Below are positions 1-5,599 of a stretch of DNA of 5,599 nt, one piece after another; position 1 is the stretch's first letter; every line of letters begins with the position of its first letter. The stretch spans positions 1-5,599 of the IMG/VR virus record IMGVR_UViG_2703718812_000014. One strand, 5' to 3'. The DNA is from a virus. Taxonomy: Duplodnaviria; Heunggongvirae; Uroviricota; Caudoviricetes. A program made the translations under genes and the position numbers. A model generated the notes under the pieces. That model searched no databases and was not told the origin of the DNA. It worked only from the letters and a program-made list of their open reading frames with translations.

Positions 1-39
1 ATGGTGATGAATTTTTCGAAACACAGAGCCGCAATGTAA
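1..39 (+). CDS. 3' end of an upstream ORF (partial; last 12 codons ...MVMNFSKHRAAM then TAA)
   Basis: Open frame from position 1 to TAA at 37-39, followed 30 nt later by a strong SD for the next ORF, which suggests an operon. Too short to identify. Confidence 0.25.
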   Translation: MVMNFSKHRAAM

Positions 40-82
40 CCGACTGGATGCCGCTACCAGAACCGCCGCAGGAGGTGCGCCA

Positions 83-166
83 ATGAACTGGCCTGAAGCA
101 TTTGCAATTACAGGCGTTGCTATGGCTATCGCTTTTTTAGTATATGTTATTTGTCGGTGGGGGTAA
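83..166 (+). CDS. small hydrophobic peptide, 27 aa (MNWPEAFAITGVAMAIAFLVYVICRWG), predicted single transmembrane helix
   Basis: ATG at 83 preceded by AGGAGGT (70-76) at 6-nt spacing; product is essentially one hydrophobic helix; below the 60-aa cutoff of the ORF track. Confidence 0.45.
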   Translation: MNWPEAFAITGVAMAIAFLVYVICRWG

Positions 167-201
167 AAACGTTCGCCGGGATTAACACCAAAGGAGGGAA
201 T

Positions 202-306
202 ATGTCGGATGATATTTCACTGGCAATGGAAGGTGCGCTGGCTGTTATTGCTGTTGTGGGCGTTTACTGCCTGGTTGTGTTTTTGATGGATCGACTAGGG
301 AACTGA
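202..306 (+). CDS. small hydrophobic peptide, 34 aa (MSDDISLAMEGALAVIAVVGVYCLVVFLMDRLGN), predicted single transmembrane helix
   Basis: ATG at 202 preceded by AAGGAGGG (191-198); acidic N-terminus followed by about 20 hydrophobic residues; TGA at 304-306; below ORF-track cutoff. Confidence 0.45.
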   Translation: MSDDISLAMEGALAVIAVVGVYCLVVFLMDRLGN

Positions 307-314
307 ATTCATTA

Positions 315-336
315 CGATATGGGAATTCCCATATCG
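315..336. repeat. perfect 22-bp palindrome CGATATGGGAATTCCCATATCG centred on GAATTC
   Basis: Read directly: the sequence equals its own reverse complement; lies between the small ORF at 202-306 and the hok promoter region. No flanking T-run, so not a typical intrinsic terminator. Confidence 0.6.
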
Positions 337-348
337 GGTAAAAACGGT

Positions 349-376
349 TTGCGGTAAAGCGAGAGTTAAGTAGAAT
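349..376 (+). promoter_or_regulatory. candidate hok/mok mRNA promoter (-35 TTGCGG 349-354, 16-nt spacer, -10 TAGAAT 371-376)
   Basis: The -10 is a 5/6 match to TATAAT. The predicted start (~383) falls at GCGGGTGCTTGAGGCTATCTGCC, which closely resembles my recollection of the 5' end of plasmid R1 hok mRNA. Confidence 0.4.
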
Positions 377-430
377 TGCTGCGGGTGCTTGAGGCTATCT
401 GCCTCGGGCATGAACACCAACGGCAGATAG

Positions 431-502
431 AGAAAAGCCCCAGTTAACATTACGCGTCCGGCAAGACGCTTAACATTAATCTGAGGCCATATCTATGACT
501 TG
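431..502 (-). ncRNA. sok: predicted Sok-like antisense RNA overlapping the mok start and SD
   Basis: On the minus strand a -35 TTGCCT (complement of 533-538) and -10 TAACCT (complement of 510-515) with a 17-nt spacer would start transcription near 502, running antisense across the mok ATG (495) and ending in a U-rich tract (complement of 429-437). Position matches the known hok/sok layout; exact ends are uncertain. Confidence 0.35.
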
Positions 503-707
503 CACATGTAGGTTAGCCTCTTACGCGCCGAAAGGCAAGGAGAAGCAGGCTATGAAGCAGCAAAAGGCGATGTTAATCGCCCTGATCGTCATCTGTTTAA
601 CCGTCATAGTGACGGCACTGGTAACGAGGAAAGACCTCTGCGAGGTACGAATCCGAACCGGCCAGACGGAGGTCGCTGTCTTCACAGCTTACGAACCTGA
701 GGAGTAA
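495..707 (+). CDS. mok: Mok-like leader ORF (70 aa), an in-frame N-terminal extension of hok
   Basis: ATG at 495 opens a frame that runs through hok to the same stop; the 19-residue extension MTCTCRLASYAPKGKEKQA resembles Mok leaders of chromosomal hok loci as I recall them. Confidence 0.55.
   Translation: MTCTCRLASYAPKGKEKQAMKQQKAMLIALIVICLTVIVTALVTRKDLCEVRIRTGQTEVAVFTAYEPEE
552..707 (+). CDS. hok: Hok/Gef-family type I toxin (51 aa), HokD/RelF-like
   Basis: Product MKQQKAMLIALIVICLTVIVTALVTRKDLCEVRIRTGQTEVAVFTAYEPEE has an N-terminal TM helix and the conserved Hok C-terminal signature (RKxLCEVR...EVAVF.AYE); it is nested in a mok-like frame with hok-like leader structure. Confidence 0.85.
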   Translation: MKQQKAMLIALIVICLTVIVTALVTRKDLCEVRIRTGQTEVAVFTAYEPEE

Positions 708-728
708 GAGACCAGGCGGGGTAAACCC

Positions 729-795
729 CCGCCACCTCTGATGTGTCAGGCATCCTCAACGCACCCGCACTTAACCTACTTCGGCGGTTTTTTTT
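729..795 (+). terminator. hok mRNA 3' domain: fbi-like element (754-768) and T8 run (788-795)
   Basis: CCTCAACGCACCCGC (754-768) is complementary, with one bulged C, to the predicted mRNA 5' end GCGGGTGCTTGAGG (381-394), as in tac/fbi pairing. CCGCC (729-733) can pair with GGCGG (783-787), followed by eight T. Confidence 0.4.
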
Positions 796-915
796 CACGT
801 ACTGTGGTTGTGAATACGATTGGTATTAGGATATGCTAACAACATTAGCTTGACTAATTTTGTATTGACTTGATTTTTGTTAAAGAACAGGACGGAGAAG
901 TAAGGGGGGCACCCA

Positions 916-1095
916 ATGAGCTACGCACTAAAAAAACACCCGCGATTGACTATTCCCCCTCGCGATAAAAGCGTTGTGGCAGCTCCGCGCCCGGCTATCG
1001 ATGAAAATTGCACTCATCGTGAGCAGGTGAAAAATGCTTTCGATTTCGGTTTTTCTCGTTACGAGAAGGCAATGGAAGAACTTTCAAAAGTGTAA
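916..1095 (+). CDS. hypothetical 59-aa protein, candidate cognate partner (antitoxin) of the downstream Doc-family toxin
   Basis: ATG at 916 with AAGGGGGG (902-909) upstream; ends in tandem stops TAA-TGA (1093-1098) 18 nt before the Doc ATG, in the same frame. Sequence MSYALKKHPRLTIPPRDKSVVAAPRPAIDENCTHREQVKNAFDFGFSRYEKAMEELSKV does not resemble Phd as I recall it. Missed by the ORF track (<60 aa). Confidence 0.5.
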   Translation: MSYALKKHPRLTIPPRDKSVVAAPRPAIDENCTHREQVKNAFDFGFSRYEKAMEELSKV

Positions 1096-1113
1096 TGATG
1101 GGTATTGTGCTCT

Positions 1114-1599
1114 ATGGCTGAGATTGTTGAAGGAGTGCATTACCTTACGGTTGATGATCTTGTTGAAATCAATCGTTCCCTAATTGAATTACAGACGCCA
1201 GATGAGCTCGTTGGTGTTCTGAGTCCAGATAACTTAAGTTCTTCTCAGGCCCGTCCCAGCATGGTTCGATGGTATGAACAGACTAATGACATGTTTGTAC
1301 TGGCATCGGTATTGATTGAAAGTCTGATTCAGAATCATCCGTTTGCTAATGCGAACAAACGAACAGCTATGATGGCTGGTTACGTCTTCTTGTTGTTGAA
1401 TGGCTATGAATTAACAGCACCAGGCGATGAAATCGTGGAAATGGCAGAGGGACTGGCCTGCAAAACCTATACTCGAGAAGATCTCGAGAACTGGTTGTGT
1501 TATTGGTCTCGCGCGTATGACAGCCGGGAATTATGTAAAACAGGCGCAACTATTGTTTTGTATGAAACTATCAAGTTTAAAATGGAACAGCAAAACTAA
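1114..1599 (+). CDS. doc: Doc (death-on-curing) family Fic/Doc toxin, 161 aa
   Basis: Contains HPFANANKRTA, matching the Doc-type Fic motif HxFx(D/N)(A/G)NKR. Start taken as ATG 1114 (MAEIVEG...); the ORF track's 1105 is a TTG start. Followed by a strong intrinsic terminator. Confidence 0.8.
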   Translation: MAEIVEGVHYLTVDDLVEINRSLIELQTPDELVGVLSPDNLSSSQARPSMVRWYEQTNDMFVLASVLIESLIQNHPFANANKRTAMMAGYVFLLLNGYELTAPGDEIVEMAEGLACKTYTREDLENWLCYWSRAYDSRELCKTGATIVLYETIKFKMEQQN

Positions 1600-1613
1600 A
1601 GGTGCTTCCAATG

Positions 1614-1637
1614 AAAACCCGCTTCGGCGGGTTTTTT
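1614..1637 (+). terminator. rho-independent terminator (CCCGC-TTCG-GCGGG followed by T6), possibly bidirectional
   Basis: Stem 1618-1622 / 1627-1631 with a TTCG tetraloop, A4 upstream and T6 downstream (1632-1637), 15 nt after the Doc stop. Confidence 0.75.
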
Positions 1638-1827
1638 GTTGTTTATTTTCGGTGAGTATGATGCATCTGGTTGTACTGATGTGGTTGGCTGATTCTGTTA
1701 TTCAGGTGGCTTATTGCTGTTGATCGGTATGTCTTCACGGCTAGAATCGAGGCTCTTAAGTAGCGCGCAGGGAGAAGAGGGATGGACCCCGAAGGGGAAG
1801 AGCTATTTATCTGGAAGGATTCTGAAG

Positions 1828-2001
1828 ATGAAAATCGAAGAATTGCGTGAAATTTTTAGTGAAAATGGCCTCTATGCTGTGCGCGTTGAGAATGGGAAAG
1901 TTGTCTACACAACGTTAATCCCTGATGATCATGTAATTTTATCTATCGAGGCATTCATTGAATACCTTGAAAGGCTCGGTTTCAAGGTAGTTCGCGAATG
2001 A
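1828..2001 (+). CDS. small hypothetical protein, 57 aa (MKIEELREIFSENGLYAVRVENGKVVYTTLIPDDHVILSIEAFIEYLERLGFKVVRE)
   Basis: ATG at 1828 with GGAAGGA (1813-1819) upstream; the long N-terminal extension in the ORF track (from 1714) has no RBS and looks non-coding. Family not recognised. Confidence 0.5.
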   Translation: MKIEELREIFSENGLYAVRVENGKVVYTTLIPDDHVILSIEAFIEYLERLGFKVVRE

Positions 2002-2060
2002 GTTATAATTCGTAAGCCAGCCTGAACAACTGGCAACCTACAGCGCCATTGGAGACAGCA

Positions 2061-2660
2061 ATGGCGCATATACAACTGGTCAAACAAACCTCTTCCGGAT
2101 TACTTCTCCCGGCGACGCCGGAGAGTTGTGATTTTCTGCATCAAATCAAAATAGGCGAGTGGATACACGCTGATTTCAAGCGCGTTCGTAACTACGCATT
2201 CCATAAGCGTTTTTTCAAACTTCTGCAACTCGGATTCGATTACTGGACTCCGGTCGGTGGGGCGATCACTCCTCGCGAGCGAAAACTGGTGTCCGGTTTC
2301 GTTGATTATCTGTGCGAATCAGTAGGCCGGGAACATACGCCAGCTCTGAGCGAAGCCGCAGAGCAATATCTGAATACAGTTGCGACACGCAGAACCCGAG
2401 ATACAGCATTGCTAAAGTCGTTTGAGGCTTTCCGCGAGTGGGTAACCATTCAGGCAGGATTTTACACCGAGCATATTTATCCTGATGGTAGTCGTGGGCG
2501 CAGGGCAAAATCTATCGCATTTGCGAACATGGACGAAACCGAGTTTCAGCAGGTTTATAAATCTGTACTGAATGTGCTGTGGAACTGGATCCTGTTCCGT
2601 AAATTTTCCTCTCCGGAGGAAGTCGAAAATGTGGCCGCGCAGCTGCTGGAGTTTGCGTAA
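2061..2660 (+). CDS. lambdoid nin-region protein, DUF1367-like (199 aa)
   Basis: ATG at 2061 with GGAG (2051-2054) upstream; the ORF track's 2049 is a TTG. Its stop overlaps the next start (TAATG at 2658-2662). Family assignment is from memory of nin-region gene order and needs a search. Confidence 0.7.
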   Translation: MAHIQLVKQTSSGLLLPATPESCDFLHQIKIGEWIHADFKRVRNYAFHKRFFKLLQLGFDYWTPVGGAITPRERKLVSGFVDYLCESVGREHTPALSEAAEQYLNTVATRRTRDTALLKSFEAFREWVTIQAGFYTEHIYPDGSRGRRAKSIAFANMDETEFQQVYKSVLNVLWNWILFRKFSSPEEVENVAAQLLEFA

Positions 2661-2950
2661 TGGTGGATTTACGTAAAGCGGCAAAAGGTCAGATGTGTAC
2701 AGTCAGAATTCCTGGCTACTGCAATCACAATCCCGAAACGTCCGTGCTGGCGCATTACAGGCTGGCGGGGACGTGTGGAACAGCGACAAAACCACACGAT
2801 ATGCAGGCGGCAATTGCCTGTAGCTCATGCCACGATTTAATCGACGGGCGGGTAAAAACCAGCGATTACACCAAAGAAGAATTGCGCCTGATGCATGCAG
2901 AAGGTGTTTTTCGCACACAAGAAATCTGGAGAAAGGAAGGTTATTTATGA
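2660..2950 (+). CDS. DUF1364 family phage protein, YbcO-like putative nuclease (96 aa)
   Basis: MVDLRKAAKGQMCTVRIPGYCNHNPETSVLAHYRLAGTCGTATKP...IACSSCHD carries the conserved Cys/His pattern and matches my recollection of DLP12 YbcO; start overlaps the upstream stop and its stop overlaps the Q start (ATGA at 2947-2950). Confidence 0.75.
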   Translation: MVDLRKAAKGQMCTVRIPGYCNHNPETSVLAHYRLAGTCGTATKPHDMQAAIACSSCHDLIDGRVKTSDYTKEELRLMHAEGVFRTQEIWRKEGYL

Positions 2951-3501
2951 TTTACCCAACAAATACAGGCAAAAGCGGGGAACGCCTTCGTCTCACCACG
3001 CTGGAAAGTGTCTGGATTCAGGGAAAACTGCGCATGTGGGGGCGCTGGTCGTATATTGGCGGCGGTAAGACGGGAAATATGTTCAACCAGTTGCTGACCT
3101 CTAAAAAGCTGACAAAAACGGCAATTAACGAGGCGCTCCGGAGGATGAAAAAAGCAGGTTTGGACAAACCTGAACTTGAGGCTTTTTTGCGGGATATGAT
3201 CAACGGCAAGCAAAAAAGCTGGCTGGTGCATTGTACTGATGCAGAGGCGTTATGCATTGATCGGGTGATTAGTGAAGTGCTGGCAGAACACCCAGGATTG
3301 ATTTGTATCCTCCGGCAACGATATGAAGGGAGGGGGATGACTAAGCGAAAAATGGCTGAATTGCTGAATGATTCACACCCTGAGTGGTGTTTTCGGACGT
3401 GCTGCAGTCGGGTAGATGTATGGCTAAATCTTGCTGAATATATGCTCTATCTACCGATGCGTGATGCATTCTCTTCCGGGGATCTAAAAACCGTCTGTTG
3501 A
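2947..3501 (+). CDS. Q: late-gene antitermination protein Q (184 aa)
   Basis: ATG 2947 with AGGAAGG (2934-2940) at 6-nt spacing; N-terminal ...KLRMWGRWSYIGGG...LLTSKKL resembles the Q-antiterminator family (compare DLP12 QuuD WGAW...LITSK). It sits just upstream of a promoter-plus-terminator pair, as expected for Q/PR'/tR'. Confidence 0.8.
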   Translation: MIYPTNTGKSGERLRLTTLESVWIQGKLRMWGRWSYIGGGKTGNMFNQLLTSKKLTKTAINEALRRMKKAGLDKPELEAFLRDMINGKQKSWLVHCTDAEALCIDRVISEVLAEHPGLICILRQRYEGRGMTKRKMAELLNDSHPEWCFRTCCSRVDVWLNLAEYMLYLPMRDAFSSGDLKTVC

Positions 3502-3527
3502 CTCAATCTGTTATCCGGGGCTATATT
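3498..3527 (+). promoter_or_regulatory. candidate late promoter PR' (-35 TTGACT 3498-3503, 18-nt spacer, -10 TATATT 3522-3527); a qut site is expected here
   Basis: Consensus-like hexamers directly after the Q stop, 60-80 nt upstream of an intrinsic terminator; this is the classic lambdoid Q-PR'-tR' layout. Inverted repeat TATCCGGGG (3512-3520) / CCCCGGATA (3565-3573) brackets the start region. Confidence 0.4.
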
Positions 3528-3588
3528 CCTCACGCGCCAGCAAAATCTGGCGTCGGGATTGGAACCCCGGATAGAGACCGCGACAGAC

Positions 3589-3610
3589 ACACGCCGCGAG
3601 CGTGTTTTTT
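3589..3610 (+). terminator. tR'-like rho-independent terminator (ACACGC-CGCGA-GCGTGT followed by T6)
   Basis: 6-bp GC-rich stem 3589-3594 / 3600-3605, 5-nt loop, T-run 3605-3610; about 75 nt downstream of the predicted PR' start. Confidence 0.6.
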
Positions 3611-3771
3611 ATTGTCGTATGCACGCGCACATCTGAATTATGGTGGGGCGCATGGGGGAGCTGAAAAGCTCGCCGGTCGGTTTCCCGGTAGTTCCAACCC
3701 TGTGCGTCTCACCACCCGATGATTGGAACCTGACGGTGGTGATAGTTTAGAAACCACCAGAGGGCGTCATT

Positions 3772-4188
3772 ATGACAACTCAAATTTCTGTTGAAACTCT
3801 CTCCCCGATCACCCATAACCGGATTCCTGTTATTACCACCGAACTTTTGGCGCAGCTTTACGGCACTGAGCCGGTGCGTATTCGCCAGAATCATCATGAG
3901 AACAAAGTACGCTTCGTTGAAGGGAAACACTTTTTCAAAGTTGTTGGTAATGACCTTAAAGAATTGCGGGTAGCTTTAAACTACTCACAAAATCCCATCT
4001 CTCCCAAAGCCCGCTCCCTTATCCTCTGGACAGAACGCGGAGCAGCCCGCCACGCAAAAATGCTCGAAACCGATCAGGCGTGGGATGTGTTCGAAAAACT
4101 GGAAGACTGCTATTTCAGTCAAAAGGATCCGTCAGCGCCAGTTGCATGCCAGAAAAGTTACGACACGCGAGTTCTCTGTTATCAGTGA
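3772..4188 (+). CDS. ORF6N-domain (phage antirepressor-like) protein, 138 aa; ends at an in-frame TGA followed by 46 further open codons to TAA 4327-4329 (possible truncation or readthrough)
   Basis: ATG 3772 with GAGGG (3760-3764) at 7-nt spacing; ...TTELLAQLYGTEPVRIRQNHHENKVRFVEGKHFFKV...ILWTERGAARHAKML fits the ORF6N pattern (AELYG...RFPE..F). The same frame stays open after TGA 4186-4188 with no independent start codon. Confidence 0.65.
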   Translation: MTTQISVETLSPITHNRIPVITTELLAQLYGTEPVRIRQNHHENKVRFVEGKHFFKVVGNDLKELRVALNYSQNPISPKARSLILWTERGAARHAKMLETDQAWDVFEKLEDCYFSQKDPSAPVACQKSYDTRVLCYQ

Positions 4189-4424
4189 GGTGGTGTCACT
4201 GTTTCCACAATTCAGTTACGGGATGATGATATTGTTATTTCCCTTGAGTCATGGCTGGAACTGGCGAGAGCCAATGGTTGGTTTGTTGTTCGCAGAGATA
4301 AACTGGTGGAAAGGTTGATGCAGCTTTAAAAAAGTTCTTGCATTTTTGCACATAAACTGCTTCAATTCCGGTACGCTTCGCAAAGCTGTATCGCGAGGCG
4401 AACCAAGCGCATGAACTTTACCAG

Positions 4425-4448
4425 AACCCGCCATTGAGCGGGTTTTTT
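4425..4448 (+). terminator. rho-independent terminator (AACCCGC-CATTGA-GCGGGTT followed by T6)
   Basis: 7-bp stem 4425-4431 / 4438-4444 and T-run to 4448, about 100 nt downstream of the ORF6N frame end. Confidence 0.65.
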
Positions 4449-4487
4449 ATTGCGGAATTAATTACGGACCGTTATTATTCTGCTCCC

Positions 4488-4563
4488 GGCCCTTTAGCTC
4501 AGTAGTGAGAGCGAGCGACGCATAATCGCCAGGTCGCTGGTTCGAATCCAGTACAACGCGCCA
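4488..4563 (+). tRNA. tRNA-Ile(CAU)-like element resembling E. coli ileX / phage ileZ, probably a non-functional remnant with an unpaired acceptor stem
   Basis: D-arm GCTC-AGTAGTGA-GAGC, anticodon loop CGCATAA (anticodon CAT, but G at position 33), T-arm GCTGG-TTCGAAT-CCAGT and 3' CCA. The 5' acceptor strand GGCCCTT cannot pair with the 3' strand ACAACGC, and the anticodon stem has an A-C mismatch. Confidence 0.45.
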
Positions 4564-4577
4564 CACTTATTTTCCCT

Positions 4578-4603
4578 GGCTCGCTTTTGCGGGCCTTTTT
4601 TTT
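4578..4603 (+). terminator. imperfect terminator-like hairpin (GGCTCGC-TTTT-GCGGGCC, one mismatch) followed by T8
   Basis: Read directly; sits immediately 3' of the tRNA-like element, as tRNA terminators often do. Confidence 0.35.
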
Positions 4604-4800
4604 AAATGTCTCACAATTCAGGCGGTTGACTGTTGTCTGGTTTGCGGGGAGTTTGTTAAAAGAAACTGGCATGGTGAATCCCCCTGTGCGGAGGGGCAAT
4701 CAGTGAGTAGGTATATGGGATAATCGCGGATTCAGGTGCTGGTACTGAATTCACCGGGAGGCACCCGGCACCATGCAAGAAAAAGAATGTGCATGCAAAC

Positions 4801-4827
4801 ATGCCCCTCTCCGGAGGGGCATTTTTT
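4801..4827 (+). terminator. rho-independent terminator (ATGCCCCTC-TCCG-GAGGGGCAT followed by T6), overlapping a second 10-12-bp A/T-rich hairpin (4817-4844)
   Basis: 9-bp stem, 4-nt loop, T-run 4822-4827; the T-run then pairs with A6 at 4834-4839 (GCATTTTTTA / TAAAAAATGC), giving mutually exclusive structures. The sequence runs into the N gap. Confidence 0.5.
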
Positions 4828-4848
4828 ATGGGTAAAAAATGCCCGAAT

Positions 4849-4884
4849 NNNNNNNNNNNNNNNNNNNNNNNNNNNNNNNNNNNN
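4849..4884. other. run of 36 N (assembly gap or masked bases)
   Basis: Literal n characters; true length and content unknown. Hides the start of the nanS-p-like gene. Confidence 0.95.
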
Positions 4885-4885
4885 C

Positions 4886-5599
4886 AGGGCGGCGTCGCCG
4901 TCAGACCTTGCTGATGCACTTGCTCAAAAAATTCGTGAAGGATGGCAACCATACGGCGGGCCGTTTTCTTCGTATACGGATGATGGCGCAGCACTTATTC
5001 AGGCGATTGTCGCAGAAGGTGATGTGAGCACACCTGTTGTGGTGAAGCCGACAGGTGGAGAAGGTGCAGTAATCAGCGCCACCAGAGACCCGGAGTATTA
5101 CTTTGTTGTGGTTCTGGCGGGGCAGTCAAACAGCATGGCATATGGTGAAGGCCTTCCGCTGCCGGAGACATATGACCGTCCGGACCCGCGTATTAAGCAG
5201 CTGGCGCGCCGCAGTACGGTGACACCGGGCGGTGTCGCCTGTAAATATAACGACATCATTCCGGCGGACCATTGTCTGCATGATGTGCAGGACATGAGCC
5301 GCCTTAACCATCCGAAAGCGGACCTGTCAAAGAGGCAGTACGGAACCGTGGGGCAGGGGCTGCATATCGCCAAAAAATTGCTGCCGTTTATACCGGCGAA
5401 TGCGGGCATTCTGCTGGTTCCGTGCTGTCGTGGTGGTTCAGCGTTCACCACCGGAGCTGATGGCACATACAGTGACGCGAGTGGTGCCTCGGAGAATTCA
5501 ACCCGCTGGGGTGTGGACAAGCCGCTGTATAAGGACCTTATCGGTCGAACAAAAGCAGCACTGAAGAAGAACCCGAAAAATGTGCTGTTTGCCGTGGTG
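4886..5599 (+). CDS. nanS: prophage sialate O-acetylesterase (NanS-p-like; SGNH/SASA hydrolase), internal fragment: 5' end lost in the gap, 3' end beyond the window
   Basis: Frame with no stop from 4886 to 5599: ...DLADALAQKIREGWQPYGGPFSSYTDDGAALIQAIVAEGDV...YYFVVVLAGQSNSMAYGEG...VPCCRGGSAFTTG.... The GQSN catalytic block is typical of the sialate O-acetylesterase family, and the position downstream of Q and a tRNA matches nanS-p in Stx phages. Confidence 0.8.

Follow-up and report, generated by a model that had tools for sequence, protein, structure and literature searches.

A closed toxin site and an sRNA block upstream of nanS-p in a probably stx-negative lambdoid prophage of Escherichia coli

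Introduction

STnc100 is an sRNA reported from Salmonella, and we take it to be the same as EcOnc27 of prophage Sp5. In EHEC lambdoid prophages, convergent sRNA pairs occupy the moron site of Sp5, where they lie 3′ of stx2B, and also that of Sp3, 4, 9, 10, 11, 15 and 17 (PMC4104026). One of these sRNAs, AgvB, is found in Sp10 and Sp17; it has the GcvB-target motif CACAACA and pairs with the R1 seed of GcvB, acting as a sponge that relieves the repression of targets such as dppA (PMC4104026). The stx2 operon is followed by STnc100 at a distance of 75 nt, and STnc100 homologues are known to be expressed (PMC12370729); Hfq binding, too, has been described for homologues. STnc100 matches often lie near Pas sRNAs, and the related PasD sits directly upstream of an esterase gene (bioRxiv 10.64898/2026.05.13.724894).

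Here, we analyse a stretch of 5,599 nucleotides (the window; IMG/VR record IMGVR_UViG_2703718812_000014, positions 1 to 5,599) in which a run of Ns immediately precedes nanS-p. A first-pass annotation, made from the sequence alone, had located the stx slot between a tRNA element and nanS-p and had considered that the gap might conceal stx. The picture that emerges from our comparisons is, with high probability, that window 4604-4885 belongs to an stx-negative lambdoid prophage, where it forms the sRNA block in the leader of the late operon, and that the toxin slot has been read and is empty and the Ns stand for an agvB segment of about 220 bp.

Results

Organization of the region between the Q-like gene and nanS-p

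As annotated here, the window runs from a Q-like gene through a c4/isrK/ORF6N module, the leader with its terminator, a hybrid tRNA, a terminator and the closed junction to STnc100 on the plus strand, an AgvB-type gene on the minus strand and, finally, nanS-p (Table 1). A gene order like that of Stx phages had been recognised on first reading, and the succession of Q-like gene, post-Q leader, tRNA and nanS-p indeed matches it.

Table 1. Features of the region, in window coordinates.
Feature	Position	Strand	Basis or remark
Q-like late antiterminator gene, DUF1133 family	2947..3501	+	Pfam DUF1133, 350.9 bits
P1 immI-like module between Q and leader	3521..4188	+	c4-a1b1, isrK and C4 RNAs, 3521-3719; truncated ORF6N ORF, 3772-4188
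Post-Q leader of the late operon, PR′/tR′-type region	4337..4448	+	GC hairpin and T run, 4425-4448
Hybrid ileZ(5′)/argO(3′) tRNA pseudogene, argN deleted	4488..4563	+	Alignment: ileZ up to the T arm, then argO
Intrinsic terminator after tRNA	4578..4603	+	Terminator scan: stem 4578-4595, then T8; left edge of stx moron site
Closed stx moron junction (true stx slot)	4604..4607		Homology blocks abut at 4604/4607
STnc100-family sRNA gene	4640..4833	+	Rfam RF02076, 143.7 bits
AgvB-type anti-sRNA gene, last 15 nt (3′ terminator arm and U tail)	4834..4848	-	Rest inside the gap
36-N gap	4849..4884		About 220 bp in relatives
nanS-p, prophage sialate O-acetylesterase, codon 10 onward	4886..5599	+	Pfam DUF1737 and SASA; continues beyond the window end

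The Q-like protein gives a marginal match to Phage_antitermQ (26.9 bits, cutoff 26), and the homologue of its gene in phage vB_EcoS-666R9 carries the annotation antitermination protein Q. In that phage the homologue of window 4337-4446 begins directly after the Q stop codon, and the leader is 95-97% identical to the sequence directly 3′ of Q genes in several phages. In the window, an inserted stretch of about 835 bp (3502-4336) separates Q from the leader. The RNAs of the module found there were detected by Rfam (c4-a1b1, 50.1 bits; isrK, 77.5 bits; C4, 71 bits), and its ORF6N antirepressor-like ORF (Pfam) has 138 aa versus a 558-nt intact gene in two compared loci and is marked as a pseudogene by RefSeq in the closest genome; the module resembles the Gifsy-1 isrK locus. 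The hairpin of the leader (AACCCGC-CATTGA-GCGGGTT, followed by TTTT) was read by eye and is unlisted by the terminator scan. Consensus scans detected no sigma-70 consensus promoter for PR′, STnc100 or agvB. The closest closed genome is that of E. coli O103:H2 strain 129, which is 99.9% identical to the window over positions 3500-5599 and in which several genes of the prophage are annotated as pseudogenes.

What had been called a tRNA element is indeed tRNA-like, but it is not an intact tRNA. ARAGORN finds no tRNA in the window, and the Rfam tRNA model gives 35 bits on the element and covers model positions 7-64 only. The blastn matches of ileZ and argO overlap at 4532-4551. Between the two acceptor strands of the hybrid (5′ GGCCCUU vs ACAACGC) 2 of 7 pairs form, its fold has a 3-bp acceptor end helix compared with 7 bp in intact ileZ and argO, and U33 is changed to G. 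RefSeq annotates the element as tRNA-Met, though the cloverleaf cannot form. Hundreds of closed EHEC-type genomes share this conserved ileZ/argO hybrid.

Towards the other end, the window also contains a hok/sok type I toxin-antitoxin locus at 383-707 (Rfam sok, 108.4 bits; hokD is annotated in the closest genome) and, within 916-1599, a toxin gene of the Doc/Fic family (1114-1599); the 59-aa ORF ahead of it, for which Pfam gives no match, may encode the corresponding antitoxin.

The stx site is closed

Three Stx phages that share sequence with the interval were compared: Stx2a_WGPS6 (AP012539), Shigella phage 75/02 and phiSTEC1589-Stx1c. The order in Stx2a_WGPS6 is ileZ, argN, argO (3550-3626), stxA (3719-4678), stxB (4690-4959), STnc100 (5034-5245) and nanS-p (from 5823). 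Shigella phage 75/02 (Stx1) has STnc100 at 4972-5170, after an stxB that ends at 4893, and in phiSTEC1589-Stx1c the end of stxB at 4815 is followed by tandem copies of STnc100 at 4898-5109 and 5171-5384 (138.7 and 198.4 bits). The distance from stxB to STnc100 is 75-83 nt in the Stx2a, Stx1a and Stx1c phages. The same contiguity extends to many more phages, since argO-stx2AB runs contiguously into the start of STnc100 in 242 Stx2-type phage records and stx1AB is contiguous with STnc100 in 80 Stx1-type phage records, and in no Stx phage examined was stx seen between STnc100 and nanS-p.

When the window was aligned to Stx2a_WGPS6 by pairwise blastn, two blocks of homology were obtained. The left block joins window 4532-4604 to phage positions 3595-3667, which comprise the 3′ portion of argO and 41 nt beyond it, with 97% identity; the right block joins window 4607-4825 to phage positions 5001-5240. 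The intervening 1333 bp of Stx2a_WGPS6 consist of the stx2 promoter region, stxA and stxB, and this moron, which would lie between the post-tRNA terminator and STnc100, is absent from the window, where both blocks abut. The left edge of the junction is the T run of the intrinsic terminator, ending at 4603, and its right edge reads ...TGTCTCACAATTCAG. The terminator itself is 97% identical to the post-argO sequence of the Stx2a phage up to the start of the stx2 promoter region. Since the site of stxAB in Stx phages is bounded by the tRNA terminator on one side and STnc100 on the other, the toxin slot of the window has been read completely and is empty. The first-pass annotation, which let the slot extend from the tRNA to nanS-p, thus misplaced it; the slot lies upstream of STnc100, at 4604-4607. 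Phage Nil3, which has three intact tRNAs and no stx in its record, likewise passes from argO straight into STnc100, with 92.7% identity to the window. In Stx2a_WGPS6 the stx2 moron is flanked by a short direct repeat, ATCTG (3660-3672 and 4996-5008), a microhomology that could mediate gain or loss of the stx2 moron.

No Stx homology was found elsewhere in the window either. Stx1A, Stx1B, Stx2A and Stx2B from two Stx phages, compared with the whole window by tblastn, gave a best E value of 2.1, blastn with the stx1 and stx2 loci returned chance matches of 15-23 nt only, and the stxA and stxB coding sequences of the late region of an Stx-converting phage are thus absent from the window by both programs. 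With these null results, and no toxin ORF in 4604-4848, the interval after the tRNA element is toxin-free as had been proposed, and with the slot empty and no Stx homology in the window the proposed relationship to an stx-negative relative of Stx phages is borne out as well. The short ORFs in 4587-4994 (39, 66 and 112 aa) were rejected as genes, as they overlap STnc100 or cross the Ns; the ORF annotated in the equivalent of this region in the closest genome is labelled an incomplete pseudogene by RefSeq.

STnc100 and the 3′ end of an AgvB-type gene fill the interval

The roughly 250 bp of structured non-coding DNA described on first reading turned out to be a full-length STnc100 gene, whose region has a fold z-score of -2.3. 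The match covers model positions 1-206 of 206 (gathering score 47, E 8e-33), and the terminator scan places its own terminator at 4801-4822 plus a T run. The STnc100 primer of an earlier study, CATGGTGAATCCCCCTGTGC, is found at window 4670-4689 (PMC12370729). STnc100 has homologues at the equivalent site of Stx1, Stx1c and Stx2a phages and of Nil3, and the allele of the window has only 69% identity to the post-stx2 allele. The description of the interval as structured non-coding DNA needs one addition, namely the 3′ end of a second sRNA gene, on the minus strand.

This second gene is recognised through strain 129. The reverse complement of window 4834-4848, ATTCGGGCATTTTTT, is identical to the 3′ end of the strain 129 agvB, which Rfam detects as AgvB (RF02702) at 7335-7396 of that locus, on the minus strand, with 96.5 bits versus a gathering score of 56. 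This AgvB corresponds to window 4834-4848 together with the 47 nt at the left end of the gap and contains CACAACA. The window itself, in which 15 nt of the gene are readable, gives no Rfam AgvB match, and the gap starts in the loop of the AgvB terminator hairpin. The gap is the sole run of Ns in the 5599 bases and comprises exactly 36 N. In strain 129, where the 400 bases on each side of it match the window with 100% identity, 220 bp take the place of the 36 Ns; two closed genomes have 800 flanking bases 100% identical to the window, and the gap measures 220 bp in both. The remaining content of the gap in strain 129 is a plus-strand terminator (7421-7442), a 13-bp hairpin, the ribosome-binding site and the first 26 nt of nanS-p, and the agvB promoter is presumably within this 220-bp segment too. 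The hairpin (GGGCUGUAGUCC...GGACUACAGCCC core), at strain 129 7455-7501, precedes the nanS-p start by about 40 nt and has a fold z-score of -3.7. For the genome of the window, we infer from these sequence identities that the 36 Ns replace about 220 bp carrying most of agvB and the start of nanS-p.

The nanS-p start codon is at position 7544 of strain 129; since the right edge of the gap follows 26 nt later, the codon falls inside the gap in the window. The part of NanS-p that can be read in the window matches DUF1737 (31.5 bits) and SASA (25.4 bits). The strain 129 protein (648 aa, gene 99.6% identical) adds a C-terminal DUF6645 domain (246.8 bits), which is beyond the window end here. In the closest closed genome the NanS-p gene precedes the holin and lysozyme genes.

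The length of the gap is conserved among relatives

A query made by joining 400 nt from each side of the gap was searched in 5426 closed E. coli genomes, and the flanks were counted as being in one place when no more than 900 bp apart. By this joining rule, both flanks are together in 341 of the closed genomes and the room between them is therefore too small for stxAB. In the best 60 of the 341 genomes (97.5-100% identical) the spans are 1017-1025, which leaves gaps of 217-225 bp, exactly 220 in 53 of the 60. Results from viral contigs are in line with this: of 44 IMG/VR contigs in which the 33-mer bordering the gap on its left is found unchanged, 43 go on into the same stretch of agvB, and in 40 the right flank follows 219-224 bp later. 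A spacing shorter than 217 bp was found in none of these 100 relatives (60 closed genomes and 40 IMG/VR contigs), and the arrangement of left flank, exactly 36 bases and right flank has zero matches in GTDB genomes and IMG/VR.

Three draft IMG/VR contigs end at or near the segment, one exactly at the equivalent of window 4848, one 16 nt past the right edge and one 140 nt into the segment. Contig ends at or near the boundaries of the 220-bp segment suggest that assemblies break here repeatedly. For the gap itself, a break in assembly is the most likely origin, and the Ns would then mark a scaffolding gap across a segment that is bounded by hairpins and that prophages have in common.

Longer spans were rejected as inserts in the gap. 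In one closed genome the extra length is due to IS903B inside nanS-p, downstream of the gap position, and in O157:H7 strains Z869 and Z1813 it is due to an extra ~208 bp upstream, between the stop codon of the Q-like gene and the tRNA-like element. In E. coli H105 (ST131-like), a minus-strand iraM anti-adapter gene lies between a truncated STnc100 and the esterase gene (2520-3312), at the agvB position. The agvB site takes different small cargo in different lineages.

Discussion

Could the unread stretch beside nanS-p still hide a toxin? All that speaks for stxAB, or another toxin, inside the gap is its unread state and its location between the tRNA and nanS-p, and we regard this as extremely improbable, given that stx is upstream of STnc100 in every Stx phage examined, that the slot at 4604-4607 is closed and that the stretch measures about 220 bp in all relatives. 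The earlier suspicion that the gap might conceal stx is not supported by the observation that stxAB precedes STnc100 in Stx phages, since the gap belongs to the interval from STnc100 to nanS-p. A larger non-stx insert in the interval from STnc100 to nanS-p (an IS element, for example, or a further moron) has more in its favour: some Stx2a phages are reported to have IS elements inside nanS-p or in the stretch that separates it from stx (PMC10462455), IS903B interrupts nanS-p in one closed genome, iraM takes the agvB position in the ST131-like genome, and multi-copy IS elements commonly break short-read assemblies. However, with an IS insertion some of the 220-bp segment should still be read on either side and here the whole segment is missing, such an insert is absent from the 60 closed genomes and 43 viral contigs with near-identical flanks, and the IS903B case sits downstream of the gap position, so that an insert of this kind appears very unlikely. 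We give equally little credence to the Ns being of true length, which would imply a 184-bp deletion removing most of agvB and the nanS-p start codon and leaving nanS-p startless. That 36 differs from 220, and that masked stretches preserve length in some collections, would fit such a deletion; against it, the exact 36-base spacing has no match in genome contigs or IMG/VR, no spacing below 217 bp occurs among the 100 relatives, and the contigs of other drafts stop at or near the same boundaries, which points to an assembly break. The chance that the gap holds a lineage-specific replacement (another anti-sRNA allele or a small moron like iraM), or a deletion silencing agvB and nanS-p, is similarly slight. 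The reading that we favour remains an unread agvB segment of about 220 bp next to a toxin slot that is read and empty.

The closed junction could also be viewed as the scar of a recent event, in which an Stx2 phage lost stx by precise deletion of the moron, instead of as the mark of a long-standing stx-free lineage. The 97% identity to the Stx2a phage over the 73 nt up to the junction, and the ATCTG repeat flanking the Stx2a moron as a possible mediator of deletion, agree with recent loss. On the other side, the STnc100 allele is just 69% identical to the post-stx2 one, the closed junction together with the hybrid tRNA is present in 341 closed genomes, including O103:H2, O121:H19, O157:H7, O111:H8 and O45:H2, and Nil3 has the same closed junction with intact tRNAs. 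Therefore, the allele is old and widespread, and a recent loss is improbable. As far as these sequence comparisons indicate, the closed junction represents an stx-free allele of long standing in a mosaic lambdoid prophage; an ancient loss of stx at the junction is possible.

A working model of the sRNA block can be drawn from published homologues and laid over the anatomy described above. In the lysogen, STnc100 and AgvB would be made on their own, convergently, ending at back-to-back terminators, and AgvB from the prophage would sponge GcvB. Upon induction, Q-modified RNA polymerase would pass the leader, post-tRNA, STnc100 and in-gap terminators and proceed into nanS-p and the lysis genes.

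The arrangement of the locus is already known, and the stx-negative lambdoid E. coli prophage that carries it is widespread. The convergent sRNA pair, nanS-p and the stx-free kin of Stx phages have all been described previously, and biologically the locus adds nothing new. Its usefulness is for the screening of genomes: knowing where stx lies with respect to the STnc100/AgvB pair makes it feasible to call a draft prophage locus toxin-free on nothing more than the bases that were read, despite a gap beside nanS-p, and it is this relative position that removes the worry over concealed toxin cargo at the gap of the window.

Which of the known systems does the locus resemble most closely? The sRNA pairs of EHEC lambdoid prophages (AgvB in Sp10 and Sp17; AsxR/EcOnc27 in Sp5; Tree et al. 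2014, PMC4104026) occupy the same site, with Q/PR′ and the tRNAs ahead of it and the esterase and lysis genes behind it, and have the same layout, in which a plus-strand STnc100-type sRNA faces a short minus-strand anti-sRNA with back-to-back terminators (PMC4104026). Compared with those pairs, the window displays 15 nt of the anti-sRNA, and its closest genomes carry AgvB with CACAACA. As regards the STnc100/PasD family, the copy of the window is a full-length match far over the gathering score, whereas the pairing with stxB that has been suggested for this family (PMC12370729) is inapplicable to an stx-free prophage. Stx2a phages (933W/Sp5 type, Stx2a_WGPS6, AP012539) share the order of tRNAs, terminator, STnc100, nanS-p and lysis genes, and the likeness to Stx2a_WGPS6 reaches 97% identity over the 73 nt before the junction and 90% in the 5′ part of nanS-p. 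The window differs from this phage in being without the 1333-bp stx2 moron and in having the three tRNAs reduced to one ileZ/argO hybrid, and the spacer from the sRNA to nanS-p is 220 bp with agvB in the relatives of the window versus about 580 bp in Stx2a_WGPS6. The non-Stx nanS-p prophages, of which there are several per EHEC genome (PMC8065619, PMC10462455), are likewise stx-free and lambdoid, with a three-domain NanS-p (DUF1737, SASA and DUF6645).
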